From an archaeon GW2011_AR10 (GTDB lineage: Archaea; Iainarchaeota; Iainarchaeia; Iainarchaeales; GW2011-AR10): a DNA stretch of 32,000 nucleotides. The translations under genes were made by a program, and so were the position numbers. The first letter of the stretch is position 1, and each line of letters opens with the position of its first letter. Location: contig CP010424.1 in NCBI GenBank assembly GCA_000830275.1, positions 900,001 to 932,000 of the forward strand, written 5' to 3'. Under the pieces are notes generated by a model that ran no database searches, was not told the origin of the DNA, and saw only the letters and a program-made list of their open reading frames with translations. Below are positions 1,719-27,776 of this stretch, in pieces.

Positions 1719-2208
1719 CCTGAATGAGAGCGGGCAAACAATCCTTGTGGACCTGACTTTTGCGCTGCTGATTTTTCTGCTGGTGTTCAATTCAATTAAT
1801 GCAGCATACATTTCCTCTGTTGCAAGCGTTAAAGAAAGAAGCCGGCTGAACGAAATGCAGCTCAAGGCAACGCAGGCAATTGAAAGCCTTGTAAGCTTTG
1901 AAGGAACTCCAAGCAACTGGGAGGAACTGCCGCTGCAGCAGGTTCAAGAAATTGGTTTGGCCGATGAAAGCAAAACAATAAACGAGGCAAAGCTTAACGC
2001 ATTCAAGAACCTTTCAGCAGACTACAATTCAACCAAAGTGCTGCTAAACCTCGGCTTGTTTGATTATTTTTTCAGCCTGAAAGGAGCAGATGATGTCAAT
2101 GCAGGGCTGCCTGCAACAACAAATGCAACACAAGTGCAAGTGAAAAGAATTGTAACATACAAGGGAGAGGAAGCAATTGTTGAATTCACGTTATACTCGC
2201 TGTCATGA
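1699..2208 (+). CDS. Pilin-like hypothetical protein
   Basis: 169-aa ORF. N-terminus ..LNESG|QTILVDLTFALLIFLLVFNSI. No in-frame ATG precedes the hydrophobic helix, so the start is TTG at 1699 or 1705 (GGAG at 1692-1695). Overlaps the upstream stop at 1716-1718. Confidence 0.6.
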   Translation: MCLKTFDLNESGQTILVDLTFALLIFLLVFNSINAAYISSVASVKERSRLNEMQLKATQAIESLVSFEGTPSNWEELPLQQVQEIGLADESKTINEAKLNAFKNLSADYNSTKVLLNLGLFDYFFSLKGADDVNAGLPATTNATQVQVKRIVTYKGEEAIVEFTLYSLS

Positions 2209-5011
2209 AGGAAGCGGGCGAGGAAAGGGCTTTGTCAAAACCTTTTCAACAAAAGGTTTACGAAAAGAGGAAAAAAGAGGCTTTGCCTTTTCCACTGATG
2301 CAGTAATTGCAACTGTTTTGGTGGGGGCAGCGCTGGCGTTGCTTGCAGTGCAGCCTTCAATAAACACAAGCGTTTCAGGGCTTTCACTGAAGCAGGCAAG
2401 CGATGACGTTTTTCTTTCAATGCAGAGAAGCGGGTTCATGCTGTTAACGATTGACTCAAATGCTCCAAGCGAAGCTGTTGCGCAAATACGCTTAAAGGCA
2501 TTGGGCCTGCTGCCTGAAAACACGGAATTGTTTGTTGAATTGAAACAGTTTGACTTGAATATAGAGGAATGCAGGGCAAACAAAACTTTTAACGCGTGCT
2601 TTGAAAGCGTTGCAAGCGTCAACTCCGGCCCCGCAATTCCAAGCGGAAAAGAAGTTGTAGGGGGAACAACATACTTTTTCAAAAAACAGGGTTCAAGCGA
2701 CTGCAACTTAAGCTACCTCGAGTTAAAAGAATTTGAGGGAATGCATGAGGATTACGGCAGTGAACTTTTTTTTTCTGAACAAAAGCCCCTTGAACTATTC
2801 TTTCAAGAAGAAGGAGGGGGAGAAGACCTGAACATAAATTTTGATGTCAACGTTTCACCAAGCGAAAGCATTTCATGCGATGAAAACGTTACAGTAACTT
2901 TGAGTGTTAGCGTTCCAGAAAACGTCAGAACGCCGATAGATGTTGTGCTTGTTCTTGACCGCAGCGGCAGCATGTCATGGAACGGCTATGTTAGCACTAG
3001 CTCTGCAAACTCTGTTTGGGGCAATGACGGAAATTACGTTTTTGTGGGAGATGGCAGTGCCGGAGTCAGGGCAATTGACGTAAGCAACCCAAGGCTCCCC
3101 GTAATTGTTGACACTATTGACCCTGGCAGTGTCAATGATGTGTATGGGGAGGGCAACTATTTGTATGCAACTGAAACAGCATCAGATGACGAGCTTATAG
3201 CGTATGACGTAAGCAATCCAAGCGACTTGCAACAGCTTGACCGGTTAATTTTTTCAAGCGTTTACGGGGTTTTTGCATTGAATGATTTTGTTTTTGTTGC
3301 AGGTGACAGGTCAGGAGGCGGAAACAATCGGGGCCTTTACATTGTGGATGCAAGCAATAAAAGCGACTTAACCAACAGGGGGAGAGCAAACCAGAATTAT
3401 GCAAGGAGCTCATTCGTTGTAGGCAATACTGCATTTCTTGCAATTGGTTCCAACGGCTTTGCAACAGTTGATGTAACAAACAAGGATGCGCCGGTTGTGC
3501 TTGACACTTATGATACAAGCGGCTATGGCTGGAGCACATTAATTGAAGGGAATTACGGTTTTGGTGCTGATGGGGAAGCAGGCCTGCAGGTGTTTGACAT
3601 AAGCAATTTGAACAACATCCAGCTGGCAGACAATTTTGATACACCGGATTACTCTTACAGTGTTTTTGTTTTAGGCAACAAGGCATACGTAGCAGATTAT
3701 TCGTCGCTTCAAATTCTTGATGTTAGCGATCCAAACAACGTAGTGTTTGAAAAAAGTTTTTCGTCTCCATACGAATACCAAGACCTTTTTGTGAAAGACA
3801 ACTTTGCTTTCCTTGCGGCAGGAAGCATTGGTTTCATTACGCTTGACCTAATCAACGGCCCGAGAATCGACAACGCAAAACAAGCAGCAAGCGAATTCGT
3901 TGACTTCAACGGATGGAGCCTGCCGCCTGACCAGATTGGAGTGGTTTCATTCAATACCAGTGCAACGCTTAACCAGCAGCTTACCACAAACAAAACTGAC
4001 TTGAATTCGGCGATTTATTCTCTTGTTGCTTCAGGCGGCACCAACATTGAGGAGGGAATAAGGAGTGCCACAACAGAGCTAACTTCCGTGAGAGCAAACC
4101 CAAATGCGCTGCATTTCCAAGTTGTTTTATCGGATGGCCAGTCAAATTCCGGGAATTCGCTTTTGGCAGCACAGGATGCAGCTGATGAAGAAATTGTGAT
4201 TTACACTGTTGGGTTTGGTGCTGATGCAAGCGAAGCAGAGCTGACAGCAATAGCAGAAGCAACAGGAGGCAGCTATTATTTTGCCGAAGACGACAATGCT
4301 TTGTCGGAAATATTTAATTTGATTGCAGAGCAAATTGAAGAGCTTGCAAATGATTCAAACGTGAATGTTCCAATTGGCGGGGGCGCATTAGTTTCCAATC
4401 CGGGTTCGGGCAGCATTGTTGACGGCAACCTTCTGTTCAATTCTGGCTCAATTACGCCTGATACGCCTTGGAGCGCATCCTACATTCTTAATTTCCCCTG
4501 CTCGAATGCTTTCAACTGCTCGATTGACGCTTTAAGCTTTCCAGGGGAAGGAAGCTACTTTGAATACGTTGACGTTAACGGCATAACACGGAGAGTTGAC
4601 TTCAATGTAAGCACAACCCTTGATTTTTTGAACAGGGATTTAACGGTTGACATTTATGGTGCGGAGCTTGTGGGGGAGAGTTCAGCAGAAATTGATGTGA
4701 ATGTTGCAAATGTAGGGGATTTGAATTCAGGCGAAACTTTACTGAACTTTTACCTTGACGATATCAATGGAACACTGCTTGACTCAAAAAATGTTCCGGA
4801 ACTGTGCGGCTTGAATGATTCAGTGTGCACTTCAACGCGGTTCACTGTTTTCTCTCCTGTTTCAATCAGCCAAGAGGGAGTTATTTACGCGGTTGTGAAC
4901 GACAACAATTCGGTGAGTGAGTGCCCGAACAACAACTTTGATGCAGTTAACTGCTTTGGCGGGCCGGCAACAGAATATTATGCATTAGAGTACAGGGTGT
5001 GGAGGGAATGA
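2177..5011 (+). CDS. Modular pilin-adhesin: prepilin-like N-terminus, vWA domain interrupted by a 7-repeat LVIVD beta-propeller, C-terminal CARDB-like domain
   Basis: 944-aa ORF. TTG start at 2177 sits 7 nt after GGAGAGG, and there is no in-frame ATG before the TM helix. N-terminus ..KEEKRG|FAFSTDAVIATVLVGAALALLAV. MIDAS motif DRSGS at 2957-2971. Seven repeats of the type N[YF]xFVxDGxxGhxhhDVSNPxxP span ~3025-3862. The vWA then resumes (NAKQAASEFVDF..IGVVSFNTSA..ASGGTNIEEGI..VVLSDGQSN..IYTVGFG..GGSYYFA) to ~4346. A CARDB-like segment follows at ~4636-4990. Confidence 0.9.
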   Translation: MLNSRYTRCHEGSGRGKGFVKTFSTKGLRKEEKRGFAFSTDAVIATVLVGAALALLAVQPSINTSVSGLSLKQASDDVFLSMQRSGFMLLTIDSNAPSEAVAQIRLKALGLLPENTELFVELKQFDLNIEECRANKTFNACFESVASVNSGPAIPSGKEVVGGTTYFFKKQGSSDCNLSYLELKEFEGMHEDYGSELFFSEQKPLELFFQEEGGGEDLNINFDVNVSPSESISCDENVTVTLSVSVPENVRTPIDVVLVLDRSGSMSWNGYVSTSSANSVWGNDGNYVFVGDGSAGVRAIDVSNPRLPVIVDTIDPGSVNDVYGEGNYLYATETASDDELIAYDVSNPSDLQQLDRLIFSSVYGVFALNDFVFVAGDRSGGGNNRGLYIVDASNKSDLTNRGRANQNYARSSFVVGNTAFLAIGSNGFATVDVTNKDAPVVLDTYDTSGYGWSTLIEGNYGFGADGEAGLQVFDISNLNNIQLADNFDTPDYSYSVFVLGNKAYVADYSSLQILDVSDPNNVVFEKSFSSPYEYQDLFVKDNFAFLAAGSIGFITLDLINGPRIDNAKQAASEFVDFNGWSLPPDQIGVVSFNTSATLNQQLTTNKTDLNSAIYSLVASGGTNIEEGIRSATTELTSVRANPNALHFQVVLSDGQSNSGNSLLAAQDAADEEIVIYTVGFGADASEAELTAIAEATGGSYYFAEDDNALSEIFNLIAEQIEELANDSNVNVPIGGGALVSNPGSGSIVDGNLLFNSGSITPDTPWSASYILNFPCSNAFNCSIDALSFPGEGSYFEYVDVNGITRRVDFNVSTTLDFLNRDLTVDIYGAELVGESSAEIDVNVANVGDLNSGETLLNFYLDDINGTLLDSKNVPELCGLNDSVCTSTRFTVFSPVSISQEGVIYAVVNDNNSVSECPNNNFDAVNCFGGPATEYYALEYRVWRE

Positions 5012-5970
5012 GTAAAGGAATACTGTTAAGCCTGCTGACGCTTTTTCTTCTCTTGAATTTGATTGCATTGAACCAGATTGCAGTTCAATCGGACAGCTCG
5101 GCAAGTGAAAGCATTGCGGGCATTTCTGCTTTGACTGCTGCAAGCGACAAGCTTGAATTAGTTGCGGAGAACATTGTTTTCCTGCACCGCTTCGGGGCAG
5201 CGGAAAGCATTGCGGAAAGGGCGCTTCCGTTTTCCTTTTCGTTGGATTCCAACAGGTTTGAGGCAAGGCAGCGGCTGCCAGTAAATGCAGACACATTGAA
5301 TGGCTTCTTTGACTCAATCAATTCTTTCCGGGTTTTTGTTTCTGACACCAACTACTCAAACGCGTTTGATGGTTTGGCGGTTGACGCAAACACAATTGAA
5401 AACGATTCATGGAATGGGAACTCTGAAAGAATTTCGTTCCTGGTGAAACCTCAGTGCCTTGAATTCTTTGTCAAGGACTTAAACATTGCGGGCTTTAATG
5501 CAGGAAACTGTGATAGCGAATTCGACATTAACAGCGTTAAGCGATTTGACTTAAATGTTCTGGTTCCTTCAACCGAGGACTTCAATTCAGTGCAGTGCAG
5601 TTTTGACGGCAGCATTGGGTGCCCTTCAGCTGAATTCAACCCCGGCGCGCAGGGAAACTTTGTTGAAATAAACCTGCTGGATGAGAACTGTTCGAACTGC
5701 TCCATTCCTGCGGGTCAGAAAAAAATTTCAGCATACTATATTGCAAGCGCAGACAACAATGTAACAATAAGCTGCACCGGCATCTGTAACTCTGAGCCAG
5801 TAGTAATCAGCGTTGGGAAAGGCCTGACAGTTGAAAGCAGCGGCAACCGCATTGAATTCGTTTTTTCCGCACTGTTTGATTCCCCAGTTAAACAGTTCAA
5901 GTTCAACGACTTTAATGTAAGCGTTTCAAACAAGAATGCAGGGGTTAGCGCTAGGTATGGGAATGGATAA
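5008..5970 (+). CDS. Pilin-like hypothetical surface protein
   Basis: ATG at 5008 lies directly after GGAGGG and forms an ATGA overlap with the upstream stop (5009-5011). The ORF track starts at GTG 4999. N-terminus MSKG|ILLSLLTLFLLLNLIALNQIAV. Confidence 0.7.
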   Translation: MSKGILLSLLTLFLLLNLIALNQIAVQSDSSASESIAGISALTAASDKLELVAENIVFLHRFGAAESIAERALPFSFSLDSNRFEARQRLPVNADTLNGFFDSINSFRVFVSDTNYSNAFDGLAVDANTIENDSWNGNSERISFLVKPQCLEFFVKDLNIAGFNAGNCDSEFDINSVKRFDLNVLVPSTEDFNSVQCSFDGSIGCPSAEFNPGAQGNFVEINLLDENCSNCSIPAGQKKISAYYIASADNNVTISCTGICNSEPVVISVGKGLTVESSGNRIEFVFSALFDSPVKQFKFNDFNVSVSNKNAGVSARYGNG

Positions 5971-7129
5971 AGCAAGCTTGTTTTATTTGGCCGTGATTGC
6001 AACGGCAATTGGAATTGCATTCCTTTTTGCTGCAGGCTTTGAGCCTGAAATGCCGAAAACGCAAGAGCAACTGCGCTTAACTGTTTTTGAAACGCAAAAA
6101 CAGCAGATAGCTGAAGGGGAAGAGCTAGTGGTTAGAGTTGAAGCACAGGGCACAGGAATTGCAAGCATCGGCATATCGTTGAATGGGAAACAGGTGGAGG
6201 AAGTGGAATGCGGGCAAACGCCCTGCAGCCACGAGTTCAGAAAAATTGTTTCAGACATTGGAGCATACCAGCTGGCTGCATTTGCTTTTAGCGCTGAAGG
6301 GAAGCGCGTTGAGGAAAGCAGGGTTGTTTACGTTGCGCCGCAGGAAAACACCTGCATTGACAACTCAAGGTATGGCAGCTGCGGGAAAGAGAAGCCGTTT
6401 TACTGCCTTGAAGGAAAGCTCGTGGAAAAGTGCAGTGAGTGCGACTGCGATTCCGGCTTTGAATGCGTTGAGGAAAAGTGCAGTGCAAGTTCGCTTCCAC
6501 TAGAAATTGCTTCACTTAACGCAGGCTCCAGTTTCATAAAGCCCGGAACATACATTGATGTTTTCTTTGAACTGCAAAACAATACTGAGGAAATTGCAAG
6601 AGCCGGGGCACATTACACAATTGAAGTGGTTTTTTATTCCCCTTCAAATGAGCAGAGGTTCACTGAAAGCATCCAACTGGAACAGGAACTGCTCCAAGGA
6701 AAGCGTGCAGCAAAAAAGGTTTCAGGGAAAGAGTTTGTGCTTGAAGAAGGAAACTACTCGCTGAGTGCCGCGCTTCTTGATGCCAGTGAAAACATTGTAA
6801 GCAGGTTTGAATCCTTAGAAAAAATCGTTGCAAGGGATGATTTTAGTGCACCTGCAGCACCTACAGGCGTTAGTGCAGTGTTTGTGCAGGGGAAAGCCCT
6901 GCTTTCATGGAATCAGAACAGCGAGGACGACTTCGCTGCTTACAGGGTTTACAAAAGCAGTGAAGTGCAGGCAACTTTCATTAGTTACTCTTTCTCCCTT
7001 GAAACAAACTTGAATTCAGTTGAAATCACAGGTCTTGAGGGCGGAAAGCACTTCTTTGTGGTTACTGCATTAGACCACTTCGGCAACGAATCAGTTTTCA
7101 GCGATGTTGTGTCAGTTGAGGCAAGCTGA
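5957..7129 (+). CDS. Membrane-anchored or pilin-like surface protein with Cys-rich knot, beta-sandwich and C-terminal fibronectin type III-like domain
   Basis: In-frame ATGs at 5957 and 5963 overlap the upstream stop (5968-5970). N-terminus MGMDKA|SLFYLAVIATAIGIAFLFAAGF. Cys-rich block CIDNSRYGSCGKEKPFYCLEGKLVEKCSECDCDSGFECVEEKC. FN3-like tail APTGVSAVFVQGKALLSWNQNSEDDFAAYRVYKS...FFVVTALDHFGNES (~6847-7100). Confidence 0.8.
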   Translation: MGMDKASLFYLAVIATAIGIAFLFAAGFEPEMPKTQEQLRLTVFETQKQQIAEGEELVVRVEAQGTGIASIGISLNGKQVEEVECGQTPCSHEFRKIVSDIGAYQLAAFAFSAEGKRVEESRVVYVAPQENTCIDNSRYGSCGKEKPFYCLEGKLVEKCSECDCDSGFECVEEKCSASSLPLEIASLNAGSSFIKPGTYIDVFFELQNNTEEIARAGAHYTIEVVFYSPSNEQRFTESIQLEQELLQGKRAAKKVSGKEFVLEEGNYSLSAALLDASENIVSRFESLEKIVARDDFSAPAAPTGVSAVFVQGKALLSWNQNSEDDFAAYRVYKSSEVQATFISYSFSLETNLNSVEITGLEGGKHFFVVTALDHFGNESVFSDVVSVEAS

Positions 7130-7584: not shown

Positions 7585-8160
7585 TTGGTGAAGAAAAAGG
7601 TTTCAAAAGCAAAAACAAAACCAAGGAAAAGCAAGCGAGCAAAAAAGGCAGCAAAGCGGCTTGAGAGCACGCAGGAGAAGCCAGTGCAGCAGGCAAGCCA
7701 AATAACTGAACATGCTGGAGAAGAATCCGAGGGCGAAATTTTCAGGGTTAGGGGTTTTACCGAATCAGCCAAAAAAGTGGAACAGCTGAAAGGCGTTCCA
7801 GTTGAATTAAAAGAACACAAAATTGTAACGGCTTTTGACCAAGTGTATGATTTAGTCAAGAAAACAAAGCGGATTAAGCTTGGCTCAATTGCAAAGGAGC
7901 TGGGCTTGAGCAGGAAAGCCGTGGAGGACTGCACTAAAATCCTGGAGGACGAAAACTTGGTGGAAGTGGAGTACCCTGCAATTGGAGATCCATTGATTGA
8001 AATAGTTGAGTACAGGGAGTGGAAAAAACAGCACGATTTAGAGGAAGAAGAGACGAAAAAACTTGGAAAAGAAAAAGAAATCCTGAGAAAGCAGAAGGAA
8101 CAGGAATTGCAAAAGCTTAAGAAGAAAAAGTGGGTTCCTTTTATCGGGAAAAAGAAGTGA
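7585..8160 (+). CDS. Basic-tailed winged-helix (wHTH)-like protein, stand-alone homologue of the N-terminal extension of ATPase 29680..31560
   Basis: 191-aa ORF with a Lys/Arg-rich N-terminus (VKKKVSKAKTKPRKSKRAKKAAKR). The segment KIVTAFDQVYDLVKKTKRIKLGSIAKELGLSRKAVEDCTKILEDENLVEVEYP (~7819-7977) aligns by eye with IEELMTIVVQKKKASVKEIASSLGWSQKQVEEVAKVLEKQGVVDVVYP of the second ATPase. The tail is E/K-rich. Confidence 0.75.
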   Translation: MVKKKVSKAKTKPRKSKRAKKAAKRLESTQEKPVQQASQITEHAGEESEGEIFRVRGFTESAKKVEQLKGVPVELKEHKIVTAFDQVYDLVKKTKRIKLGSIAKELGLSRKAVEDCTKILEDENLVEVEYPAIGDPLIEIVEYREWKKQHDLEEEETKKLGKEKEILRKQKEQELQKLKKKKWVPFIGKKK

Positions 8161-8164
8161 AGTT

Positions 8165-9673
8165 ATGGCGGACAAGCTGTTAAAGGAGTACAAGGTTGAA
8201 GCAGACAAGGTTGAAGTAAGCGTTAAAATTGCTGAACGGGAAGGCGAGTTTGTCAGAAGCTATTTGCTTGACATCCCGCAGTATGGAAGAGGCACTGAAG
8301 CACTGCTTGACTCAATGAAGAGAACACTTATTGCTGACACCACCCTGAAAGCCGACAAAATGCTTGACACGCAGTTCATTGGAGAAATTAAGAAAAAGTT
8401 CAGGGAAAAATCAGAGGTCATTCTCGAGAAAACCCTTTCAGGCGTTACAGCAGAGGACAGGGGAGCATTGATTGGAATTCTCATCCAAGAAATGCTTGGC
8501 CTGGGAAAAATCGAATTTTTGCTGGCTGACGGAAACCTTGAAGAAATTGTGGTGAATTCCGCAAAGGAGCCAATATGGGTTTACCATAAGGAATTTGGAT
8601 GGCTTAAGACAAACATTTCAGTTGAAAGCGAAACTGAAACGCAGAACTATGCAAGCATTATTGCGAGAAGGGTTGGAAAACAGATAACAGTGCTTGACCC
8701 GCTGCTTGACGCGCACCTAATAACAGGGGACAGGGCAAATGCAACTTTGTTCCCGATAAGCGGGAGAGGCAACACCATTACAATCAGGCGTTTTCGAAGG
8801 GACCCTTGGACGGTTACAGACTTAATTAAAAACAAGACAACAAGCAGCGAAGTAATGGCCCTTATTTGGATGGGAATGCAGTACGAGCTAAACCTGATTT
8901 TAAGCGGCGGCACTGGCAGCGGGAAAACATCTTTCCTGAATGTTTGCCTGCCGTTCATTCAGCCAAACCACCGAATATTGTCTATTGAAGACACGAGGGA
9001 ACTTTCGCTGCCATCTTTCCTTCACTGGATTCCAATGACAACAAGGGAACCTAACCCTGAAGGGAAAGGGGCTGTGGAAATGCTGGACTTGCTGGTTAAC
9101 AGCTTGAGGATGAGGCCGGACAGAATAATTGTGGGTGAAGTTAGGAGGCAGCGGGAAGCAGAAGTTATGTTTGAGGCAATGCACACAGGGCACTCTGTTT
9201 ACACAACACTGCACGCAAACACTGCTGATGAAACAATAAGGAGGCTTGTCAACCCGCCAATTGAAGTGCCGACAACGATGCTGGAAGCAGTGCACTTGAA
9301 TGTTGTAATGTTCAGGAACAGGAAAATCGGGGTTAGAAGAGTGCTTGAAATAGCAGAATTTATTCCAGAGAAAAGAGGAGAAAGGCAGTCAATCAGGGCG
9401 AACGTGTTATACAGGTGGAAGCCGGCTGCTGACGCAATTGAAAAGTCAGCTGAAAGCATCAGGCTGTTTGATGAGCTTTCCCTTCACACTGGCCTGACAA
9501 TTGATGAAATGAGGAAAGAGCTTTACACAAAGCAAAATATTCTGGAGTGGATGGTGCAAAACAACATAAGAGAAGTTGAAAGCGTTGGAAAAATCATGGC
9601 AAAATACTACGTTGAACCAGAAGAAGTTGAAAAGGCAATTTCCAAAAACAAGGTTCCTGAGTGGTTTGGTTGA
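8165..9673 (+). CDS. Type II/IV secretion-family assembly ATPase (archaeal FlaI/PilB/TadA-like)
   Basis: 502-aa ORF. Walker A GGTGSGKT at 8906-8929, Asp box SIEDTRE, Walker B RPDRIIVGEVR, His box HTGHSVYTTLHA. Confidence 0.95.
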   Translation: MADKLLKEYKVEADKVEVSVKIAEREGEFVRSYLLDIPQYGRGTEALLDSMKRTLIADTTLKADKMLDTQFIGEIKKKFREKSEVILEKTLSGVTAEDRGALIGILIQEMLGLGKIEFLLADGNLEEIVVNSAKEPIWVYHKEFGWLKTNISVESETETQNYASIIARRVGKQITVLDPLLDAHLITGDRANATLFPISGRGNTITIRRFRRDPWTVTDLIKNKTTSSEVMALIWMGMQYELNLILSGGTGSGKTSFLNVCLPFIQPNHRILSIEDTRELSLPSFLHWIPMTTREPNPEGKGAVEMLDLLVNSLRMRPDRIIVGEVRRQREAEVMFEAMHTGHSVYTTLHANTADETIRRLVNPPIEVPTTMLEAVHLNVVMFRNRKIGVRRVLEIAEFIPEKRGERQSIRANVLYRWKPAADAIEKSAESIRLFDELSLHTGLTIDEMRKELYTKQNILEWMVQNNIREVESVGKIMAKYYVEPEEVEKAISKNKVPEWFG

Positions 9674-10560
9674 AAACTGTTACAATTCCGTTCAGCCCTT
9701 TCCCTTTCCCTGTTCTGCTCGGCATAAGCAGCCACTTGAAGGGCATTGGTTCAAAAATATCAAACATGTTCCCTTACTTGGAGCTGGAATTAAGGCAGGC
9801 TGAAATTGATTTAAGCGCTGAAGAGTACGGTTCCGTAATGTTTTTTTTGTTCGCTTTTTATTTCTCGGTTTTTTCCAGCATAGTTTACCTTTTCATGTTA
9901 AAGCTTTCGCCTCCAAATGCCCTGATTGCAGCCTTAACCTTTGGCGGGCTTTTTTCGCTGATGGTTTTCGTGCAGTTAAGCGTTTACCCTAAAATCAAGG
10001 TGAAGAGAAAAGTAAGGGACCTTGACAGGAACCTCATTTTTGCCCTTAGGACAATACTAATTGAAATAAAATCCGGCGTTTCCCTTTTTGACTCGATTGG
10101 GTTGATTGCACAAGGAGAATTTGGCTCTGTAAGCAAGGAATTCAGGAATGCATTGGAGAAAATAAATTCCGGCACCCTTGAAGAAGCAGCGCTGGAAGAA
10201 ATCGCAACATACAACCCATCTCTTTTTTTCCGCAGGACAATATGGCAGCTAGTGAACGGATTAAAGGCAGGGGCAGAGGTAAGCGTTGTGATGAAGTCGC
10301 TGGTTGAAACTCTTTCCAAGGAACAGAGAAACCAAATAAGAAAATACGGTTCCTCACTCAGGCTGCTTTCACTAATGTACATGATGCTCGGCATAATTGT
10401 GCCTGCATTGGGCCTGACTTTCCTAATAATCCTTGGTTCTTTTCCGCAGATTTCAATTGAGGAATGGATGTTCTGGGGCCTGCTGGTGTTCGTGGCAATA
10501 GGCCAGTTCATGTATCTTGGCATACTTAAGACGAACAGGCCGAGCCTGCTGGGTGGTTGA
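9661..10560 (+). CDS. FlaJ/TadB-like polytopic membrane protein (single T2SS-F-type domain)
   Basis: 299-aa ORF. GTG at 9661 overlaps the ATPase stop. The N-terminal region is conserved with paralogue 28796..29683, which supports the long start. Cytoplasmic helical domain ALRTILIEIKSGVSLFDSI..FRNALEKINSGTLEEAALEEIA..LVNGLKAGAEVSVVMKSL is flanked by TM helices. Confidence 0.85.
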   Translation: MVWLKTVTIPFSPFPFPVLLGISSHLKGIGSKISNMFPYLELELRQAEIDLSAEEYGSVMFFLFAFYFSVFSSIVYLFMLKLSPPNALIAALTFGGLFSLMVFVQLSVYPKIKVKRKVRDLDRNLIFALRTILIEIKSGVSLFDSIGLIAQGEFGSVSKEFRNALEKINSGTLEEAALEEIATYNPSLFFRRTIWQLVNGLKAGAEVSVVMKSLVETLSKEQRNQIRKYGSSLRLLSLMYMMLGIIVPALGLTFLIILGSFPQISIEEWMFWGLLVFVAIGQFMYLGILKTNRPSLLGG

Positions 10561-11562
10561 ATGGGAATTTACTCCAGAGTTTCAGGGATGCTGCCAAAAA
10601 GCATTACAAGAGCATTCAAAAGGCAGCTTGACTATTTGGGCATTGAAATAGGGGAGAAACGGGTTGTAGGGTTTCTTTTCCTTTACGGTTTCCTGCTTAG
10701 TTTGGGGCTTGCATTCAACATTTCGTTCATGTTTGGAATCAACGCCTTATTCACCTTTGCTTTCTTTTTCGGTTTGTTTGTCGGGGGAACTTATCTCTGG
10801 CTGAATGTCACTGCTGAAAGCAAGGGAAGGTTTGTTGAAACAATTCTTCCTGATGCACTGCAATTGGTTGCATCAAACGTCAAGGCAGGCCTGACAACTG
10901 AAAGGGCACTGCTTGTTTCAGCAAGGCCGGAATTCGGGCCATTAGAGAAAGAGCTTAGGAAAGCAGCGAAAAGGATTTCGGCAGGAGAAACAGTGGTTGA
11001 AGCGCTTGCAGGAATTTCTGAGAAAATAAAGTCAAAAACACTGGAGAAAACGATTTGGCTGATAAGCGAGGGCATTAGAAGCGGCGGGGAAATAGCTGAT
11101 TTGCTCATTGAACTGGCGGATGACTTGCGGGAACAGCAGGCGCTGGAAGCGGAAACAGCTGCAAACATTTCAATGTACATTCTCCTGATTTTTTTCTCGG
11201 CTGCAATTGGAGCGCCAATGCTGTTCGGGATAAGCAGCTTCATTGTGCAGATTCTTGCAGTCCAATCAGCCAGCACAGCTTCACTGGAGGTTGGCGAAGC
11301 AGCAAACATCCCGGCAAACATTCAGGGGGTTACGGCAATGATAACAGGAAAAGGCAATGCTTTGTCGCCTGATTTCATCATTTTCTTTACAATGATTTCA
11401 CTTGTCATTACTTCAATCTTTGCTTCACTCACAATTGGAGTAATAAACAACGGCTCAGAAAAATCAGGGGTGAAATTCATTCCAGCAATTCTGTTCGTTT
11501 CATTCAGCCTCTTCTTCATAATCAGGATAGTGCTCACAACACTGTTCGGATCGCTACTGTAA
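10561..11562 (+). CDS. FlaJ/TadC-like polytopic membrane protein (single T2SS-F-type domain)
   Basis: 333-aa ORF with its ATG immediately after the upstream TGA. Domain LPDALQLVASNVKAGLTTERALLVSA..LRKAAKRISAGETVVEAL..ISEGIRSGGEIADLLIELADDL is flanked by TM helices. Paralogue of 27777..28796. Confidence 0.9.
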   Translation: MGIYSRVSGMLPKSITRAFKRQLDYLGIEIGEKRVVGFLFLYGFLLSLGLAFNISFMFGINALFTFAFFFGLFVGGTYLWLNVTAESKGRFVETILPDALQLVASNVKAGLTTERALLVSARPEFGPLEKELRKAAKRISAGETVVEALAGISEKIKSKTLEKTIWLISEGIRSGGEIADLLIELADDLREQQALEAETAANISMYILLIFFSAAIGAPMLFGISSFIVQILAVQSASTASLEVGEAANIPANIQGVTAMITGKGNALSPDFIIFFTMISLVITSIFASLTIGVINNGSEKSGVKFIPAILFVSFSLFFIIRIVLTTLFGSLL

Positions 11563-12844: not shown

Positions 12845-13327
12845 TTATTGCCCGATTTTGGTTTTAAGCATTTTTTCAACGGGCTTTGGGACAAACCCGG
12901 AAACGTTTCCGCCCAAAGAAACGATTTTTTTTACAACGCTTGAACTGATGTAAAAGTGGTCCTCGTTGGTCATAACAAAAACCGTTTCAAGGCCAGGGGA
13001 AAGCTTCCTGTTCACAATTGCCTGCTGGAATTCAGCAGAAAAATCGCTCATTTCCCTTAAGCCGCGCAGAATCAAGCCACAGTTTTCTTTTTTCGCAAAA
13101 TCAACAAGCAGGCCGGAAAAGGACTTCACTTTAATGCTGCCAAGGCCCTTAACGGTTTCCTCTATCAGTTCAACCCTTTCCTTGGCAGAAAAAAATGTTT
13201 CTTTATGCGGGTTTGCTGCAACCGCAACAATGAGTTCGTCAAACAGTTTGCTGCCGCGCTCAATAACATCCAAATGCCCAAAGGTTATTGGGTCAAAAGT
13301 GCCGGGATAAATTGCTTTACGGGGCAT
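12845..13327 (-). CDS. coaD: Phosphopantetheine adenylyltransferase, bacterial type
   Basis: 160-aa ORF. AIYPGTFDPITFGHLDVIERG (T/HxGH nucleotidyltransferase motif), ..RGLR..SDF..EFQ....NR.L....ETVF.MT......ISSS.VK. Collinear with bacterial CoaD along its full length. Confidence 0.95.
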   Translation of the reverse strand: MPRKAIYPGTFDPITFGHLDVIERGSKLFDELIVAVAANPHKETFFSAKERVELIEETVKGLGSIKVKSFSGLLVDFAKKENCGLILRGLREMSDFSAEFQQAIVNRKLSPGLETVFVMTNEDHFYISSSVVKKIVSLGGNVSGFVPKPVEKMLKTKIGQ

Positions 13328-13916
13328 TGCCTAAAATCTCCTTGAAAACTTTTTCTGTCAGCTTCCTTGTTCTGGCAGCAGAACCACTATTATCAATTGC
13401 AAAGTCAGCCATTTTAACCTTTTGGCTTAAAGGAATCTGCGCCGAAATCCTTGCGAGAGCTTCCCTCCTAGAAAGGTTCCTCTCCCGCAGCCTTTGAAGC
13501 TGCTGTTCTTTGGAACAGTAAACTACAACTGTTTTTTTCAACAAAGGCAGCGCTTTTCTTGACTCAAAAAGCAGCGGCACCACAACAACAATCAGGCGTT
13601 GGTTCTTTTTCTTTAACGCGGACAACTGATTATTAATTTCCAAGAAAACTAATGGATGCACTAAGCGGTTTAGTTTTCTGAGTTCAGCGCGGTTTGAGAA
13701 AACAATTTGCGCGAGCTTTTCCCTGTTTATTTTTCCTGATTTGGTCAGAATTTCTTTTCCAAAATTTTTTGAAAGCAAGCGCCTGACTCTTTGCTTTTTG
13801 TAGAGCGCTGAAACAATTTTGTCCGCGTCAATTATTTTTGCGCCAAGCTCCCGAAATTGCTTTGCAGCAAGCGATTTGCCGGAAGCAATTCCTCCAGTCA
13901 AGCCGACAACAACCAT
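13317..13916 (-). CDS. coaE: Dephospho-CoA kinase, bacterial type
   Basis: 199-aa ORF. P-loop VGLTGGIASGKS followed by IIDADKI. Typical CoaE length. Its 3-prime end overlaps the coaD start by 11 nt. Confidence 0.92.
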   Translation of the reverse strand: MVVVGLTGGIASGKSLAAKQFRELGAKIIDADKIVSALYKKQRVRRLLSKNFGKEILTKSGKINREKLAQIVFSNRAELRKLNRLVHPLVFLEINNQLSALKKKNQRLIVVVVPLLFESRKALPLLKKTVVVYCSKEQQLQRLRERNLSRREALARISAQIPLSQKVKMADFAIDNSGSAARTRKLTEKVFKEILGNAP

Positions 13917-16110: not shown

Positions 16111-18900
16111 ATGGCAATGAAACTGCAAAAAGTATTGCTGATGCTGGTGTTCGCTCTGCTTTTTTCAGCAACTGCTTTTGCTGCTGAAACAGTTTACTGG
16201 CTTAGGGGCAATGCTTCCGATATCGCGCTTTACTTGGACACTGAGCACAGAATGATTTCAACTGCACCAGGCTCTGGCGCAACTGAAGCTGATTTCACCA
16301 CCACAACTGTTGCCGGAACAAATGATTGGGGGGTATGGCACTCTGACTCATTGGCGGAAAACTTCACCATAACAGGCACTGTTTATGTGTGGTTTTCCTA
16401 TCTTAATCTGAGCGGTGGAAGCGGCCAATTCCGCTGGACACTATGGGATTATGATGAGGAAAGCGGCTCAATAACGTACATTGCGCAGTCAGCGTGGGCT
16501 GACTTTCCCAGCGCAGCGCAGATTGAAACATTTAAGACTCTTGACAACAATTACACTGTTGCTGCAGGCAACAGGTTGGGCCTCAGGCTGGAGTATAATT
16601 CGGCAAGCAGCGGCAGCACTGCCTCGCTGAAGGTTGACTCTGCCAGCGCAGGCAGCAGCGTAACATGGAATGCTTCAACAGGCGGCACTTACACTGCCAG
16701 CAATGTGAGCAGGGCAGCAGCAATTCTCTTCAACCCCCAAACAGTAAGCATTTCTTGCAGTAGCGATTCTGACTGCGATGACAGCAACAGCTTGACTGGG
16801 GATGTATGCATTAATTCCGGCACGGCACAGTCTTTTTGCTCTAACCAGGGCTGCTATGTTGCATGCTACAGCAGCAGTGACTGCGATGACGGGGTTGCGG
16901 AAACAGTTGACACCTGCTTGGGTGCTGGAACCTGCTCTTCGAGGTGCCAGAACCTTGAGGAATTTTCAGCGCTGTGCAGCAGCAACTCTGACTGCGATGA
17001 TGGTAACCCGTTAACAATTGACTCATGCAATAACCCGGGAACAGCTTCTGCGGGGTGCTCAAACATTTCATGCACTCCAACGTGCAGCAGCAGCTCTGAC
17101 TGCGATGACAGCGACGCAAATACAACTGATGTTTGCGCTGGGGCAGGAAGGTGCACTGCAACCTGCTCTAATTTGGCAAGCTGCGGTAACGGCGTGTTAG
17201 ATTCAGGCGAAACCCCCTGCAATTGCCCAACGGATGCGGGCACATGCGAAGGCATTGTTGGAACCTGTTTGGAGAATGCATGCATTGGAACATCATGCGA
17301 GGTAACAATTGCTCTCGGCTGCTGTGGAAACAATTTCTGCGAGTTCAAGGAAGATTACAGCAACTGCGCGGTTGACTGCAAGCCGAAAGAAATTTCCATT
17401 GAGGTGACAGGAATAAGCGAGGAAAGCAGCTTTCTCCGCGGGGAAGAAGTTAAATTGGTTGCAGCGGTTGAAGCAGATGGATTGGAGGTAAGGGAAGCAA
17501 AGGTTTTTGCGAAAGGTTTTTTTGGGGAAATAGTTTTGTTCAACGACGGCAAGCACAGCGATGGGACAAGGAACGATAACTTGTATGGGAACAGTTTTTT
17601 TGTTGGTGAAACATTAAAGGAAGGCGCATACCCTGTCACAATTGAGGCAAGCTTTGCCGGCAGCACAGGAAAGACTGTTAAGAACCTTAATTTTAAGCCT
17701 GCACTTGAGGTTTCAATTGCAACTGACAGGGAAGCTTACGCTTTAGGCGACATAATCAGGGTTTCAGGCACTATAACAAAGAAAGGCAAAGGAATTGCAA
17801 GGGAAATTGACCTAAACATTTCAGTTGAAGGAAAGCTTGTAACTGAAGCTGATTTGAATTCCAAGGCTGATGGGAGCTATTCTTTTGAATACCATTCAAG
17901 CAATTTTGAGGATTCGGGAAGCTGGGAGATAAGCATTCTAACATCTGACGAGCAAGGCAACATTGGAGCTAAATCAAAGAATGTGGTGGTTGCAGAACAA
18001 GAAATAACTGCCTCGCTTTCACTTGAACTTGAGAGAGAAATCCTTGCAGCTTACGCAAGGAATGAAACCATTGCAATTGAAGTTAGGGTAAAGAACCTTG
18101 AAAACAAATTAGTGGAACAGGCATCAGTTCAGGCACTGATGCCTGATGGGGAGATTGTTTCATTCGCGGAAACAAGCACTGGCCTCTACGGGGCGGCCTA
18201 TTTGATTAAGCCTAACGTTCCACTCGGAGAGCAGGAAATAAAAGTCGTGGCCTCAAAGTTTGACGGCAACAATGTTATGGGCGGGAGCCTTGCATTCATC
18301 TTTGAAGTAAAAGCAATAAGCCTTATTGTTGAAGTGCTGGAGCCAACCAATAAAAGCGTTCAGGTTGGAGAGGACCTAAAAATAAGGGTTGCAGTTTCCT
18401 ATCCTGACAATGAGCCTGTTGTTGGTGCAGATTTCAATGCACTTGTGAACGGAAAAAAAGTTGAATTGAAGGCAGTTGAGAAAGGGGTCTATGAGGGAAC
18501 GCACTTCATTGACGAGTCAGAAGCACAGGGCATAAAAGCAGCAATTAGTTTTGATGACTCATTCGGGAACAAGGGCACAGCAGGGTTTGAAGTTGATGTA
18601 AGGGGCACATCCATTGTTTTTTACTTGAAAAAATATACTGTAAGCATTGCGCTTGCATTTCTTGCTGCAGCGCTTGCAGCAACCCTCATTGCACTCCAAG
18701 TAATGAACAGAAACAGGTATGCGGGCTTCAAGAGAAAGGAAAAGGAACTAATTGAAAAGCTGAAGAACATTCAGGTGCAGTATTTCAGGGAGGGTAGCCT
18801 CGACAGGAAAAATTACGACCAGTTAATGCAAAAATATGAGGCAGGCCTTGAAGAAGCCCGGAAAACCATTGCGCAGATGGAGAAGGAAAAGAAAAAGTGA
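16111..18900 (+). CDS. Large type I membrane surface protein (paralogue 1): Sec signal, YWLRG N-domain, four Cys-rich DCDD modules plus a CGNG module, Ig-like repeats, TM helix, SHOCT-like cytoplasmic tail
   Basis: 929-aa ORF. Signal MKLQKVLLMLVFALLFSATAFA|AE. Cys-rich region at 16756-17379, with tctgactgcgatga recurring about every 108-111 bp. Repeated ~90-100-aa beta-sandwich-like units. TM helix VSIALAFLAAALAATLIALQV (~18640-18705). Tail ..LIEKLKNIQVQYFREGSLDRKNYDQLMQKYEAGL. Confidence 0.9.
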   Translation: MAMKLQKVLLMLVFALLFSATAFAAETVYWLRGNASDIALYLDTEHRMISTAPGSGATEADFTTTTVAGTNDWGVWHSDSLAENFTITGTVYVWFSYLNLSGGSGQFRWTLWDYDEESGSITYIAQSAWADFPSAAQIETFKTLDNNYTVAAGNRLGLRLEYNSASSGSTASLKVDSASAGSSVTWNASTGGTYTASNVSRAAAILFNPQTVSISCSSDSDCDDSNSLTGDVCINSGTAQSFCSNQGCYVACYSSSDCDDGVAETVDTCLGAGTCSSRCQNLEEFSALCSSNSDCDDGNPLTIDSCNNPGTASAGCSNISCTPTCSSSSDCDDSDANTTDVCAGAGRCTATCSNLASCGNGVLDSGETPCNCPTDAGTCEGIVGTCLENACIGTSCEVTIALGCCGNNFCEFKEDYSNCAVDCKPKEISIEVTGISEESSFLRGEEVKLVAAVEADGLEVREAKVFAKGFFGEIVLFNDGKHSDGTRNDNLYGNSFFVGETLKEGAYPVTIEASFAGSTGKTVKNLNFKPALEVSIATDREAYALGDIIRVSGTITKKGKGIAREIDLNISVEGKLVTEADLNSKADGSYSFEYHSSNFEDSGSWEISILTSDEQGNIGAKSKNVVVAEQEITASLSLELEREILAAYARNETIAIEVRVKNLENKLVEQASVQALMPDGEIVSFAETSTGLYGAAYLIKPNVPLGEQEIKVVASKFDGNNVMGGSLAFIFEVKAISLIVEVLEPTNKSVQVGEDLKIRVAVSYPDNEPVVGADFNALVNGKKVELKAVEKGVYEGTHFIDESEAQGIKAAISFDDSFGNKGTAGFEVDVRGTSIVFYLKKYTVSIALAFLAAALAATLIALQVMNRNRYAGFKRKEKELIEKLKNIQVQYFREGSLDRKNYDQLMQKYEAGLEEARKTIAQMEKEKKK

Positions 18901-18904
18901 AAGA

Positions 18905-21430: not shown

Positions 21431-21589
21431 AAAAGTTTTGGTCAACTAGCCAATCAAGAATTAATAAGGGGTTGAACGCAGTGAAACCCCTTGATATACG
21501 CGCTGTCAACTGGCGCACTCAGTTGAAAGAGAGAAAAAATGAATCATGAAAATATTTATGAGGGTTCAAAGAACCCCCGAGGTATTCAG

Positions 21590-22825
21590 ATGTCAACTGG
21601 CTGTGGCAGTTGGAGGAATGCTTTCTTGCTTCTGGCTGTTCTGCTGCTGGCATCAGATGCCATTGCGCTTACTATTCTAACCGACAAGCTGTCTTATGTG
21701 AAAGGAGATGTCATAGCGATAAGCGGTGCATGCAGTGCGGGAAACCAGAACCTTGTCATCGGTTTAAATGGGGAGAAAAAAATTTTTGAGGAAGACATTG
21801 AGTGCTCTGAGGAAGAGGAATTCAGCTTTGATTATCAGTCAAGCTTTCTTGACCCTGAAGGAAACTGGGAGCTCAGGCTTTCAACTCCTGAGGAGTCAGC
21901 CAAAATAAATGTTGTAGTGGAAAACAAGAGGGAGGCCGGGTTTTATTTCATTAAAGTGCTTAACCCAACAATAGGCAAGTACAGCAGGGCAGAAAAACTG
22001 GATTTCAGCGTGGAAGTAACTGATGCAGGAACACTTGTAGCTGATGCAAGGGTAGTGCTTTGGGGGGTGAAAGGGGAAAGGATTGAGTTCAGGAATTCCG
22101 GCAGCGGAGTATACAATGTTGAATACACTGTGCCTGTTGATGCGCCTCTTGGAAGCTGGAAAGTGCTTTTGCTTGCTGAAACCGTGCGCGGGCAGGAGCG
22201 AATAGGGGGCAGAAACAACGAATTGGAAATGGTAATAGAAAAGGCACCGATTTCAATTGATGTGCTGGAGCCAAAAACAACCACCTTTGAGCTGGGAACA
22301 AGGATTCCTGTAAGGATTAATGCAACATACTTTAATGGAAGCGGGCTGCCGGAGGAAAGCATTGCAACAGCCAGGGTGGATGGGAAAGAGATAACGCTTT
22401 CAAGGATTTCTTCAAGCGAGTTTGCTGGCATGATTGAAATTGAGCAGAGTGGAAGTCTTGAGGTGGAGATAACAGTTGATGACCAGTCTGAAAACATTAC
22501 AACCAAAACATTGAACCTTGTTGCAGGGTGCTCGGTTACGTGCCTTATAACAAACTATGGCTTATACATAATTGCTGTTGTTTTGGTGGGCCTTGTTGCC
22601 TTCAAGCTGTTTGTTGGAAAGGTAAGCTATGGCTCAGAGCTCAGCAAACTGGAGAAGGAAAAGCAGAAAAACCTTGAATTAATTGTTTCACTGCAAAAAG
22701 AATACTTCAGCAAGGGAGTGATGCCTGCCAACTCATACAAGAAGAATCTGGCAGAATACAAGGCAAGGCTTGCTGAACTTGAAGAAAAAATAAGAGAGCT
22801 TAGGAAAAAGCAGGAAAACGAGTAA
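21590..22825 (+). CDS. Shorter type I membrane surface protein (paralogue 3; lacks the YWLRG and Cys-rich parts)
   Basis: ATG at 21590 sits 6 nt after GAGGT; ATG 21539 is an alternative. Signal MSTGCGSWRNAFLLLAVLLLASDAIA. Ig-like repeats. TM helix ~22558-22615. Tail ..LELIVSLQKEYFSKGVMPANSYKKNLAEYKARL. Confidence 0.85.
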   Translation: MSTGCGSWRNAFLLLAVLLLASDAIALTILTDKLSYVKGDVIAISGACSAGNQNLVIGLNGEKKIFEEDIECSEEEEFSFDYQSSFLDPEGNWELRLSTPEESAKINVVVENKREAGFYFIKVLNPTIGKYSRAEKLDFSVEVTDAGTLVADARVVLWGVKGERIEFRNSGSGVYNVEYTVPVDAPLGSWKVLLLAETVRGQERIGGRNNELEMVIEKAPISIDVLEPKTTTFELGTRIPVRINATYFNGSGLPEESIATARVDGKEITLSRISSSEFAGMIEIEQSGSLEVEITVDDQSENITTKTLNLVAGCSVTCLITNYGLYIIAVVLVGLVAFKLFVGKVSYGSELSKLEKEKQKNLELIVSLQKEYFSKGVMPANSYKKNLAEYKARLAELEEKIRELRKKQENE

Positions 22826-22846: not shown

Positions 22847-23000
22847 CAAAAACAAACTCTATACGACGTCCTACCGCACTGAAGTGCGAGGTTTTCCAAT
22901 GGACGTCAATTTACAGTCAACGGAAAATGAAGCCGAGCAAAAACCCCGCCATAAATGGCGAGGCTTCATTTTGGGTTGGTGAATTGCTTTTGGTGCCTTG

Positions 23001-27100: not shown

Positions 27101-27184
27101 GAACCCCACAAATAGTAGGTTTTAGAGTTTAAAAACGTTTCAGAAAACAGAAAAAGGAGAAAAGCAAAATGAACTAATGATTCG

Positions 27185-27658: not shown

Positions 27659-27776
27659 TAAACCTCTGGAATCTGAAAAAATAAATTCTACTTAATAAGA
27701 TGCATTTAGGTATTTAAATGTTTGCCTGTCATTCCTGCAACCATGACTTACGTGCAAAGCCCGATCACTGTTTTTT

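Follow-up and report, generated by a model that had tools for sequence, protein, structure and literature searches.

The 32,000-nucleotide (nt) stretch of the genome of archaeon GW2011_AR10 analysed here (the window) contains, at positions 2177..5011 of the plus strand, a gene for a 944-residue surface protein with a pilin-like N-terminus, a domain of the von Willebrand factor A (vWA) type, an LVIVD-type beta-propeller and a CARDB-like C-terminus. The vWA domain is almost certainly a single fold assembled from two pieces of the sequence (amino acids (aa) 254-268 and 562-724), with the seven-bladed propeller spliced into the loop between strand beta1 and helix alpha1, just past the DxSxS motif of the MIDAS (metal ion-dependent adhesion site). 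Across the family of this protein the same loop is a hotspot of insertion. The gene was taken from the list of open reading frames (ORFs); it has a TTG start and shares 32 nt with the ORF directly upstream. An identical protein, P0001, is encoded on the JGI contig Ga0209211_10000144, and a 153-kb JGI metagenome contig contains the window.

A vWA domain built from two sequence pieces

The native protein gave a strong match to the Pfam VWA profile (PF00092; E 6.7e-21, 75.7 bits), which covered only profile positions 15-173, at aa 562-714, and included neither beta1 nor the DxSxS motif. A faint VWA_CoxE match was found further upstream, at aa 246-268. The N-terminal piece of the domain (aa 254-268, window 2936..2980), delimited by conservation, Pfam and AlphaFold2 (AF2), consists of beta1 and the MIDAS motif DxSGSMSW; within it VVLVLDRSGSMSW spans aa 256-268 (nt 2942-2980), and the codon of D261 begins at nt 2957. 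The C-terminal piece (aa 562-724, window 3860..4348), delimited in the same way, extends from alpha1 to alpha6 and carries the MIDAS residues T622 and D653. It contains IDNAKQAASEFVDF (aa 564-577, nt 3866-3907) and the vWA motifs IGVVSF (aa 587-592), GGTNIEEGI (620-628), LSDGQSN (651-657) and VGFG (678-681); nt 4346 lies within aa 724, at the end of the last vWA helix. The original prediction, made from the sequence of the window, had placed the Asp of DxSxS at nt 2957 and quoted these vWA motifs, and all of them were found where it put them.

An insert-deleted chimera was constructed in silico by joining aa 240-270 to aa 562-730 (aa 271-561 removed). The chimera matched the Pfam VWA profile over positions 1-173 of 174 with 93.5 bits, whereas the C-terminal part alone matched positions 18-173 with 75.8 bits; positions 1-14 were covered by the aa 254-268 segment. 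The VWA_2 and VWA_3 profiles showed the same gain upon deletion of the insert. The chimera also aligned without a break, beta1 and DxSGSM included, to solved vWA domains, and the E-values improved by three to five orders of magnitude (from 8e-6 to 2e-10 with CLCA1, 6pyo; from 2.7e-8 to 8.8e-12 with 4rck). In the C-terminal part the match to the Pfam VWA profile sets in at position 15-18, so no complete vWA domain lies after nt 3860, the arrangement that the original prediction had set against its own claim.

Conservation pointed the same way. In an alignment of 19 full-length homologues (alignment A1) D261, S263, G264, S265, M266, S267, W268, T622, D653 and G654 are invariant; in a 40-sequence alignment D261, S263-M266 and T622 are invariant and D653 is conserved in at least 90% of the sequences (in the numbering of the aa 250-730 construct described below these residues are D12, S14-M17, T373 and D404). 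Mean pairwise identity is 78% for aa 254-268, the highest value in the protein, 53% for the rest of the vWA domain and 39% for the propeller. Judged by these residues the MIDAS (DxSxS...T...D) is intact and conserved, and metal binding is predicted.

The full-length AF2 model had a mean predicted local distance difference test score (pLDDT) of 81.9, with most of aa 220-730 above 90. In this model the strand at aa 254-261 is followed by the 28 strands of the insert, and then by H563-577, E586-592, E596-603, H606-614, H624-635, E645-652, H661-670, E673-680, H686-696, E700-703 and H706-724 (E, strand; H, helix). This is the canonical vWA order beta1-alpha1-beta2-beta3-alpha2-alpha3-beta4-alpha4-beta5-alpha5-beta6-alpha6, with the propeller between beta1 and alpha1. 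Beta1 could have paired with the strands that precede it, and therefore aa 250-730 were predicted alone. The construct was modelled with a pLDDT of 94.4 and a predicted template modelling score (pTM) of 0.90, and beta1 was still a strand, with a pLDDT of about 93; in the full-length model, too, its pLDDT exceeds 90.

The search for relatives found homologues both with and without the insert, and two of the latter serve as natural controls. In P0321 beta1 and alpha1 are contiguous (VDIMLVMDRSGSMDEDIDPGFGYRAKMDAAKDAAKAFVNLGYW); the protein has the same strands ahead of the vWA domain as the window protein, and its vWA domain is uninterrupted (VDIMLVMDRSGSMDEDIDPGFGYRAKMDAAKDAAKAFVNLGYWDEGDQIGLVSY). 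In P0272 beta1 and alpha1 are likewise contiguous (DRSTGALTAGERAAATAFISDANW; VDVVLTMDRSTGALTAGERAAATAFISDANW).

Standard annotation reads 'LVIVD repeats, then VWA', and so the nesting is hidden. If the database annotation were complete, the repeats would be followed in tandem by a vWA domain complete in itself, and DRSGSMSW, further upstream, would be there by chance or as a vestige; on the face of it FITLDLINGP, the last strand of the propeller, does look like a beta1-DxSxS segment. This arrangement is highly improbable: the C-terminal part lacks profile positions 1-14 as well as the DxSxS motif, the full-length VWA match is restored in the chimera, DxSGSMSW is invariant and no segment of the protein is better conserved than the one it belongs to, beta1 remains a confident strand in the AF2 model of the two-domain construct, and the insert-free homologues join the two pieces directly. 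The central claim of the original prediction, a vWA domain split by a seven-bladed LVIVD propeller after the MIDAS motif, thus held in the chimera match, the alignment to solved structures, the conservation pattern, the AF2 models and the natural controls.

The inserted propeller

The inserted propeller occupies aa 269-561 (window 2981..3859), as delimited by Pfam LVIVD, AF2 and Foldseek. Between M266 and P562 there are 295 residues, close to the predicted figure of about 290. Seven LVIVD-type repeats can be discerned by eye, at aa 286-308, 327-351, 370-398, 417-439, 459-481, 501-522 and 542-562, and the seven repeats quoted in the prediction are all present in aa 286-562. The Pfam LVIVD profile (PF08309) matched in six stretches (E 6.6e-23), with 80-91 bits against a cut-off of 20.2; the insert alone scored 91 bits. 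In both AF2 models the insert forms 28 strands arranged as seven blades of four. Foldseek aligned it to seven-bladed WD40-type propellers, such as beta-TrCP (1e-12) and RACK1 (TM-score 0.71-0.73, normalised by the target). When both models were compared with the PDB, the matches were generic WD40 propellers and vWA proteins; no chain spanned both domains, and the best TM-score normalised by the query was 0.50.

The linkers between the two domains are very short: the propeller begins its first strand at aa 270, two residues past W268, and finishes its last at aa 557, six residues before alpha1. The MIDAS face of vWA domains includes the beta1-alpha1 loop, so that a propeller in this loop must be next to the metal site. 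The pTM of 0.90 suggests a rigid two-domain unit, and propeller and vWA domain probably form one rigid binding head.

The MIDAS loop is an insertion hotspot across the family

Relatives were sought with the insert-deleted chimera and also with aa 30-270, for which an exhaustive HMMER search of 1.84 billion representatives returned 123 hits. In 116 family representatives the junctions were located with flank hidden Markov models (HMMs) built from alignment A1. The number of residues between DxSGSM and alpha1 ranged from 11 to 1,569. The largest class, 37 representatives with inserts of 288-305 aa, has the plain propeller and includes the window protein (295 aa). Shorter inserts of 117-152 aa were found in 20 representatives, of 164-196 aa in six, all with degenerate MIDAS, and of 234-246 aa in four; longer ones of 379-454 aa in 19, of 481-596 aa in 12 and of 674-1,569 aa in another 12. 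A single representative, P0300 (530 aa), has 90 residues and reads DRGEFM at the MIDAS position. In the remaining five only 11-17 residues separate the two elements; of these, four are full-length (648-671 aa), and their MIDAS is degenerate (DxSRP or DRSTGA).

Pfam searches of representative inserts revealed propellers with one nested DUF4082, with two DUF4082 and with two Laminin_G_3 domains; the insert of P0094 combines Laminin_G_3 with other modules. Nesting thus reaches a third level: the propeller, itself within the vWA domain, encloses one DUF4082 domain or two and in some cases also two Laminin_G_3 domains (P0017, P0019, P0132 and P0142-P0144; loci L035, L055 and L058). In other members (P0133, P0137 and P0141; loci L030, L037, L044 and L046) a Trp/Cys-rich module takes the place of the propeller; it is about 120 aa long, occurs singly or doubled and has the pattern FDVxLEW...MYIEAPDG...GTWxVxGWNDNP..Y.LTVK. 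The Trp/Cys-rich inserts (120-250 aa) had no Pfam match, up to E 10 for those of P0133, P0137 and P0141 (about 140-150 aa) and up to E 0.01 for the rest, and so the module may be an undescribed domain family. A guess that it is a PPC-like sandwich found no support.

The residues at the junctions follow the type of insert: SMSW-G...GP[RK]I in propeller-bearing members and SM.EC...P[IV][ST]K in those with Trp/Cys-rich modules. P0133 (138-aa insert) and P0094 (687-aa insert) are encoded in operons syntenic with that of the window gene. In a neighbour-joining tree of the chassis, that is of the protein with the insert removed, the insert classes are interspersed; the tree has no support values, and the interspersion is only suggestive. 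We rejected three bacterial proteins, P0086, P0106 and P0147, as cases of nesting: they combine NHL, EPTP or PD40 propellers with a vWA domain, in tandem and with the vWA domain intact.

Most insert-bearing members retain DxSGSM, the main exception being the 164-196-aa class. The only insert-free full-length members on the pilin chassis are P0231, P0243, P0258 and P0272, and their MIDAS motifs are degenerate (DQSRP, DLSRP, DRSRP and DRSTG); P0231 apparently lacks the MIDAS Thr as well. This pattern suggests that insert and metal site are functionally coupled. In summary, the beta1-alpha1 loop is an insertion hotspot across the family. The original prediction had the propeller right and missed that it is one of many modules that occupy this loop.

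The terminal regions of the protein

The N-terminus of the window protein reads KRG/FAFSTDAVIATVLVGAALALLAV and is prepilin-like, with a basic leader, a motif of the [KR]-G cleavage type and a hydrophobic stretch of about 20 residues. From sequence reading and the family consensus the class III (prepilin-type) signal-like motif KRG/FAFSTD and the hydrophobic helix that follows it were assigned to aa 33-58 (window 2273..2350). The consensus of the family is KGFxFSxDAxxAxxL, with G35 and D41 present in at least 90% of the sequences. Next comes a globular alpha/beta region, the putative pilin module (aa 59-217, window 2351..2827, from AF2). It is the least conserved region of the protein (29% mean pairwise identity), and Cys132, Cys141 and Cys176 in it are invariant. 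AF2 modelled the N-terminus as a helix (aa 40-57), a low-confidence break, helices at aa 71-111 and strands at aa 116-177, with pLDDT of about 70-84. The putative pilin module is followed by conserved beta-strands that precede the vWA domain (aa 218-253, window 2828..2935; AF2 strands at aa 221-245, pLDDT about 90), with the motif FDVNVSPS..CD.N and an invariant C234.

Downstream of the vWA domain there is a beta-rich region (aa 725-815, window 4349..4621; AF2 strands, pLDDT 80-90), in which C775 and C781 are invariant (alignment A2). The C-terminus (aa 816-944, window 4622..5008) is a CARDB-like beta-sandwich, assigned from Pfam and conservation, in which Cys pairs are conserved and which ends in a Y.VWR motif. 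Pfam CARDB (PF07705) matched at aa 820-920 with 26.6 bits in the full protein (E 7.1e-6) and with 30.9 bits in the C-terminus alone (cut-off 22.7), in agreement with the CARDB-like C-terminus of the prediction; the profile check of domain boundaries that had been proposed there thus found LVIVD, VWA and CARDB, all three by Pfam and far more strongly than chance would give. The protein has 10 conserved cysteines in apparent pairs and 14 N-x-S/T sequons. Together with the hydrophobic N-terminus and the CARDB domain these features point to an extracellular location.

The pilus operon and its distribution

The gene lies in an operon with pilus assembly genes, all on the plus strand. Three small pilin-like ORFs (930-1346, 1356-1718 and 1699-2208) precede it, with the class III motifs VKA/QVAAEYL, GKG/QVEVEAV and ESG/QTILVDL, respectively. 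The ORF starting at 930 has a weak DUF7289 match, and none of the neighbouring small ORFs matched a pilin family in Pfam or NCBIfam. Three to four such small ORFs also precede the homologue in three further loci, L002, L003 and L004. Downstream, at 4999..7129, there are two conserved ORFs of 323 and 397 aa, hydrophobic in a segment at the N-terminus; their syntenic counterparts in L002-L004 are 355/385, 322/408 and 315/864 aa long. Between the pilin genes and the ATPase gene lies a gene (7585..8160) for a small protein with a weak winged-helix match (Pfam HTH_24, E 6.5e-4, below the cut-off), and in the same position there are ORFs of 209 aa in L002 and 268 aa in L003. The operon continues with a type IV filament assembly ATPase of the FlaI/TadA-like T2SSE family (8165..9673; Pfam T2SSE, 5.3e-35), which in NCBIfam matched FlaI (2.9e-81) and the TadA family (7.5e-54), both below the equivalog cut-offs. 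Two separate T2SSF platform proteins follow at 9661..11562 (Pfam T2SSF, 5.4e-14 and 3e-17), in a TadB/TadC-like arrangement.

The same gene order was found around homologues in GCA_016198125.1 (JACQJG010000019.1, Candidatus Iainarchaeum), in GCA_974426465.1 and on one JGI contig. After the operon the minus strand of the window carries, at 12845-13916, a cytidylyltransferase-like gene and the gene of dephospho-CoA kinase (CoaE); L003 has this pair beside its operon as well, and L004 has a CTP_transf_like gene there. This shared flank supports the orthology of the loci. About 55 loci were found in GTDB species representatives, most of them labelled Candidatus Iainarchaeum (earlier Candidatus Diapherotrites in NCBI, DPANN) and a few Micrarchaeota or 'archaeon'; one is in the complete 1.05-Mb genome CP064981.1. 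Four loci (L016, L054, L056 and L059) come from metagenome-assembled genomes assigned to Bacteroidota, Thaumarchaeota, Chloroflexi and Falkowbacteria; mis-binning of Iainarchaeota contigs, and not horizontal transfer, is the probable cause.

Some of the loci have further peculiarities. The pilus ATPase of L002 (15876-18668, GCA_016198125.1) holds an intein that includes a LAGLIDADG endonuclease; the 930-aa protein has the domain order T2SSE-Intein_splicing-LAGLIDADG_3-T2SSE. Adjoining the operon upstream, on the minus strand, there is a gene with weak CEPT76_peptidase/DUF553 (transglutaminase-like peptidase) matches, conserved in four of four loci (L001 1-647, beyond the left end of the window; L002 6739-7362; L003 4404-5315; L004 969-1622). 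Its product appears unlike the classical A24 prepilin peptidase. In L003, in the genome with the short-insert protein P0133, an IS605 OrfB/TnpB (Cas12f-like) gene (5751-6965) is directly upstream of the operon.

Relation to known vWA adhesins

CpaL, the Caulobacter crescentus orthologue of TadG, is a predicted Tad minor pilin, in which vWA sequence flanks an intervening beta-rich domain (PMC12607857). The CpaL insert (residues 204-384) begins about 40 residues past DxTxS, consists of two six-stranded barrels and is described as projecting away from the MIDAS (PMC12607857); the predicted place of CpaL is the tip of the pilus, where it would be accompanied by small minor pilins (PMC12607857, PMC12075869). 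The window protein resembles CpaL/TadG in having an N-terminal pilin-like module and a MIDAS vWA domain interrupted by a beta-rich domain, and in its genomic setting, a Tad-type locus that also encodes a TadA-like ATPase and, separately, two T2SSF proteins. It differs from CpaL in that it is archaeal and that its insert begins two to three residues past DxSGS, is a seven-bladed LVIVD propeller and must abut the MIDAS face. Moreover, unlike proteins of the TadG/CpaL type it has no TadE/G-like N-terminal domain (PF13400/PF07811) in a Pfam scan, and its similarity to TadG-like proteins (P0199, P0210) is limited to the generic vWA domain.

PilB of Streptococcus sanguinis combines a pilin with a vWA module, in which inserted arms, one of them with a four-stranded sheet, flank a MIDAS that is needed for pilus function (PMC8179133). 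The combination of a pilin module with a MIDAS vWA adhesion module is shared by the window protein. PilB, however, is bacterial, its arms are small, its class III motif is of the IPR012902 type and it has neither propeller nor CARDB, whereas the insert described here is an autonomous module of about 290 residues. In RrgA and GBS104 two arms inserted in the vWA domain form a proposed binding trench and carry most of the sequence variation (PMC7893114). RrgA, GBS104 and SpaC, the last of which (6m48_B) was among the top Foldseek matches of the full model (1.1e-12), are similar to the window protein in having inserts next to the vWA MIDAS. They differ from it in that they belong to unrelated, sortase-assembled pili and have hairpin or loop inserts, with no module swapping reported on the scale seen in the window family.

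PilY1/PilC, the tip adhesins of type IVa pili, consist of an N-terminal vWA domain and a C-terminal PilY1-type propeller in tandem, and are not pilins. Like them, the window protein has a vWA domain and a beta-propeller in a single pilus-linked polypeptide; unlike theirs, its propeller is of the LVIVD type and internal, and the Pfam scan gave no PilC/PilY1 (IPR008707) match. In the integrin head the seven-bladed propeller of the alpha subunit sits beside the I-like vWA domain of the beta subunit and forms the ligand site with it, and the alpha-I domain is nested in the propeller. The likeness, a seven-bladed propeller adjoining a MIDAS vWA domain with (in the case of alpha-I) one nested in the other, is an analogy only: in integrins the nesting is reversed (vWA in propeller) or the domains are on separate chains, and the propeller repeats are FG-GAP, not LVIVD.

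Literature searches on LVIVD together with VWA, DPANN or pili, and on split or interrupted VWA domains, did not retrieve a description of the window family or of a vWA-nested propeller. In a review of archaeal type IV pilus systems the family does not figure, and the only vWA proteins named are regulators of the ArnB type and the TadG of bacteria (PMC4858521). In the databases members of the family are named only 'VWA domain-containing protein' or 'LVIVD repeat protein'. The suggestion that the architecture is undescribed therefore stands for this family, for which no paper was found, and has to be qualified by the split vWA domain of CpaL/TadG and the arms of RrgA, GBS104 and PilB, which precede it. 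Modular vWA pilus adhesins with elaborations near the MIDAS were already known. What is new is that an autonomous propeller stands directly in the MIDAS loop, that the setting is DPANN and, above all, that the insertion hotspot extends through the family.

Proposed function

In DPANN archaea, whose cells are small, attachment to other cells is a necessity for many members, and most of the proteins involved are uncharacterised. With its gene conserved in a pilus operon, its MIDAS intact and its insert variable between orthologous loci, the window family offers a concrete candidate for such a protein. Our preferred explanation, which we hold to be probable, is that the protein acts outside the cell, as a pilin-like adhesin in a type IV pilus of the Tad/Epd-like kind in Candidatus Iainarchaeum; a role at the pilus tip, argued from analogy, seems likely to about the same degree. 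The class III signal peptide would probably be cut by a prepilin peptidase, and the pilin-like module would place the protein in the pilus, probably at its tip, together with the small minor pilins encoded upstream. There the MIDAS metal would probably act jointly with the inserted module in binding a ligand, carried by a host cell or a surface, and the inserted module would set the specificity of binding. Placement at the tip is probable by likeness to PilB, CpaL/TadG and KilN. That the module determines specificity is suggested by the variable arms of RrgA and GBS104 and, more loosely, by the propeller-vWA interface of the integrin head.

The pilin character of the protein is open to a different view, in which the nested architecture is real and the protein is not polymerised, acting as a membrane-anchored or pilus-associated adhesin in a PilY1-like role, held by its helix or docked on the minor pilins. 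P0321 has the same body of pre-strands, vWA domain and C-terminus with an ordinary signal peptide or transmembrane segment and without the pilin-like module, so this body works without the pilin chassis. The N-terminus has no match to a pilin HMM and only moderate to low AF2 confidence, and BLASTP comparisons of the N-terminal module with all neighbouring ORFs detected no paralogy and no sequence similarity to the adjoining pilin-like ORFs. What makes a non-polymerised protein the less probable choice, although a possibility to be taken seriously, is that the KG/FxFSxDA motif and the hydrophobic helix are conserved, that the gene is always between the small ORFs with class III signals and the ATPase and platform genes, and that the bacterial analogues of the same layout, PilB and CpaL/TadG, are described as minor pilins. 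Another view keeps the protein in the pilus and makes priming or mechanosensing its main role, with a tension-responsive vWA domain, along the lines suggested for CpaL and PilY1, and the insert as a spacer or force handle; it does not exclude adhesion. CpaL, with its split vWA domain, has been proposed as a mechanosensory element (PMC12607857), and MIDAS mutants of PilB are piliated and have lost twitching (PMC8179133). Here, however, the inserts vary extremely, both in kind and in length (0 to 1,569 aa), and the lectin-type Laminin_G_3 is among them, a pattern better explained by changes of ligand specificity than by a mechanical role that is conserved; moreover, the insert is at the MIDAS loop, whereas that of CpaL was described as projecting away from the MIDAS. 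We consider a mainly mechanical role unlikely. Finally, ArnB-type vWA proteins are tied to the regulation of archaeal type IV pili (PMC4858521), and ArnB itself (8s05_A) is among the Foldseek and sequence matches, which might suggest a cytoplasmic regulator of pilus expression with MoxR-type partners. The hydrophobic N-terminal signal, the Cys pairs, the many N-glycosylation sequons, the CARDB domain and the LVIVD surface repeat all contradict this, the operon encodes no FHA or MoxR partner, and we give a cytoplasmic role hardly any credence.

Several observations weigh against the pilin-like adhesin as we describe it. Pfam, Class_IIIsignal included, and NCBIfam contained no pilin model that matched aa 1-255; for comparison, the pilin of a second locus in the window (27185-27658) weakly matches Class_IIIsignal. 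The putative leader ahead of KRG is long (35 aa), the AF2 confidence of the N-terminal module is only moderate, and an A24 prepilin peptidase was not found among the window ORFs scanned. The pilin chassis of the original prediction is thus upheld by the conserved prepilin-like motif and the operon context and not by any profile. In the models the packing of beta1 in the vWA sheet, as well as the position of the propeller beside the MIDAS and its orientation, are deduced from topology, DSSP, pLDDT and pTM; of the predicted reassembly of the two halves, the canonical order of elements and the high model confidence were obtained directly. Insert-free members with a degenerate MIDAS (DxSRP) mean that the chassis can exist without metal-dependent binding. 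The functional steps, namely the ligand, metal binding and incorporation into the pilus, are all argued by analogy.

A broader and more tentative proposal goes further: the MIDAS loop would be a natural display site for interchangeable modules in a composite, integrin-like, single-chain head, swapping of the modules would retarget the pili, and the nested vWA minor pilin would be ancestral to TadG/CpaL. In that case module swaps between orthologous loci would let DPANN Iainarchaeota direct their pili to other hosts or surfaces, and a large nested-domain vWA minor pilin would have been present already in the archaeal Epd/Tad-like ancestor of bacterial TadG/CpaL. Archaeal Tad/Epd-like pili carrying a large vWA protein comparable to TadG/CpaL bear on the evolution of the pilus tip complex. 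If the insert sets specificity, the type of insert could predict host or substrate range from metagenomes, and the beta1-alpha1 loop would exemplify an insertion site tolerated by the fold of a common adhesion domain.

Other loci in the window

Outside the operon the window has three paralogous genes for large secreted proteins of 929, 864 and 428 aa with Sec-type signal peptides (16111-22825, plus strand). The three proteins are similar to each other (BLASTP 6e-83, 2e-26) and gave only weak matches to MG2 and Big_13. A KaiC/DUF7504-like protein of 792 aa is encoded at 22998-25376 on the plus strand. A second type IV pilus-like locus occupies 25922-31560 on the minus strand. It comprises a KaiC-type ATPase (25922-27109), the pilin mentioned above (27185-27658), which has a textbook class III signal, MMLHRKG/QGTTEYLIILAV, two T2SSF proteins (27777-29683) and a T2SSE ATPase with an N-terminal winged-helix region (29680-31560).

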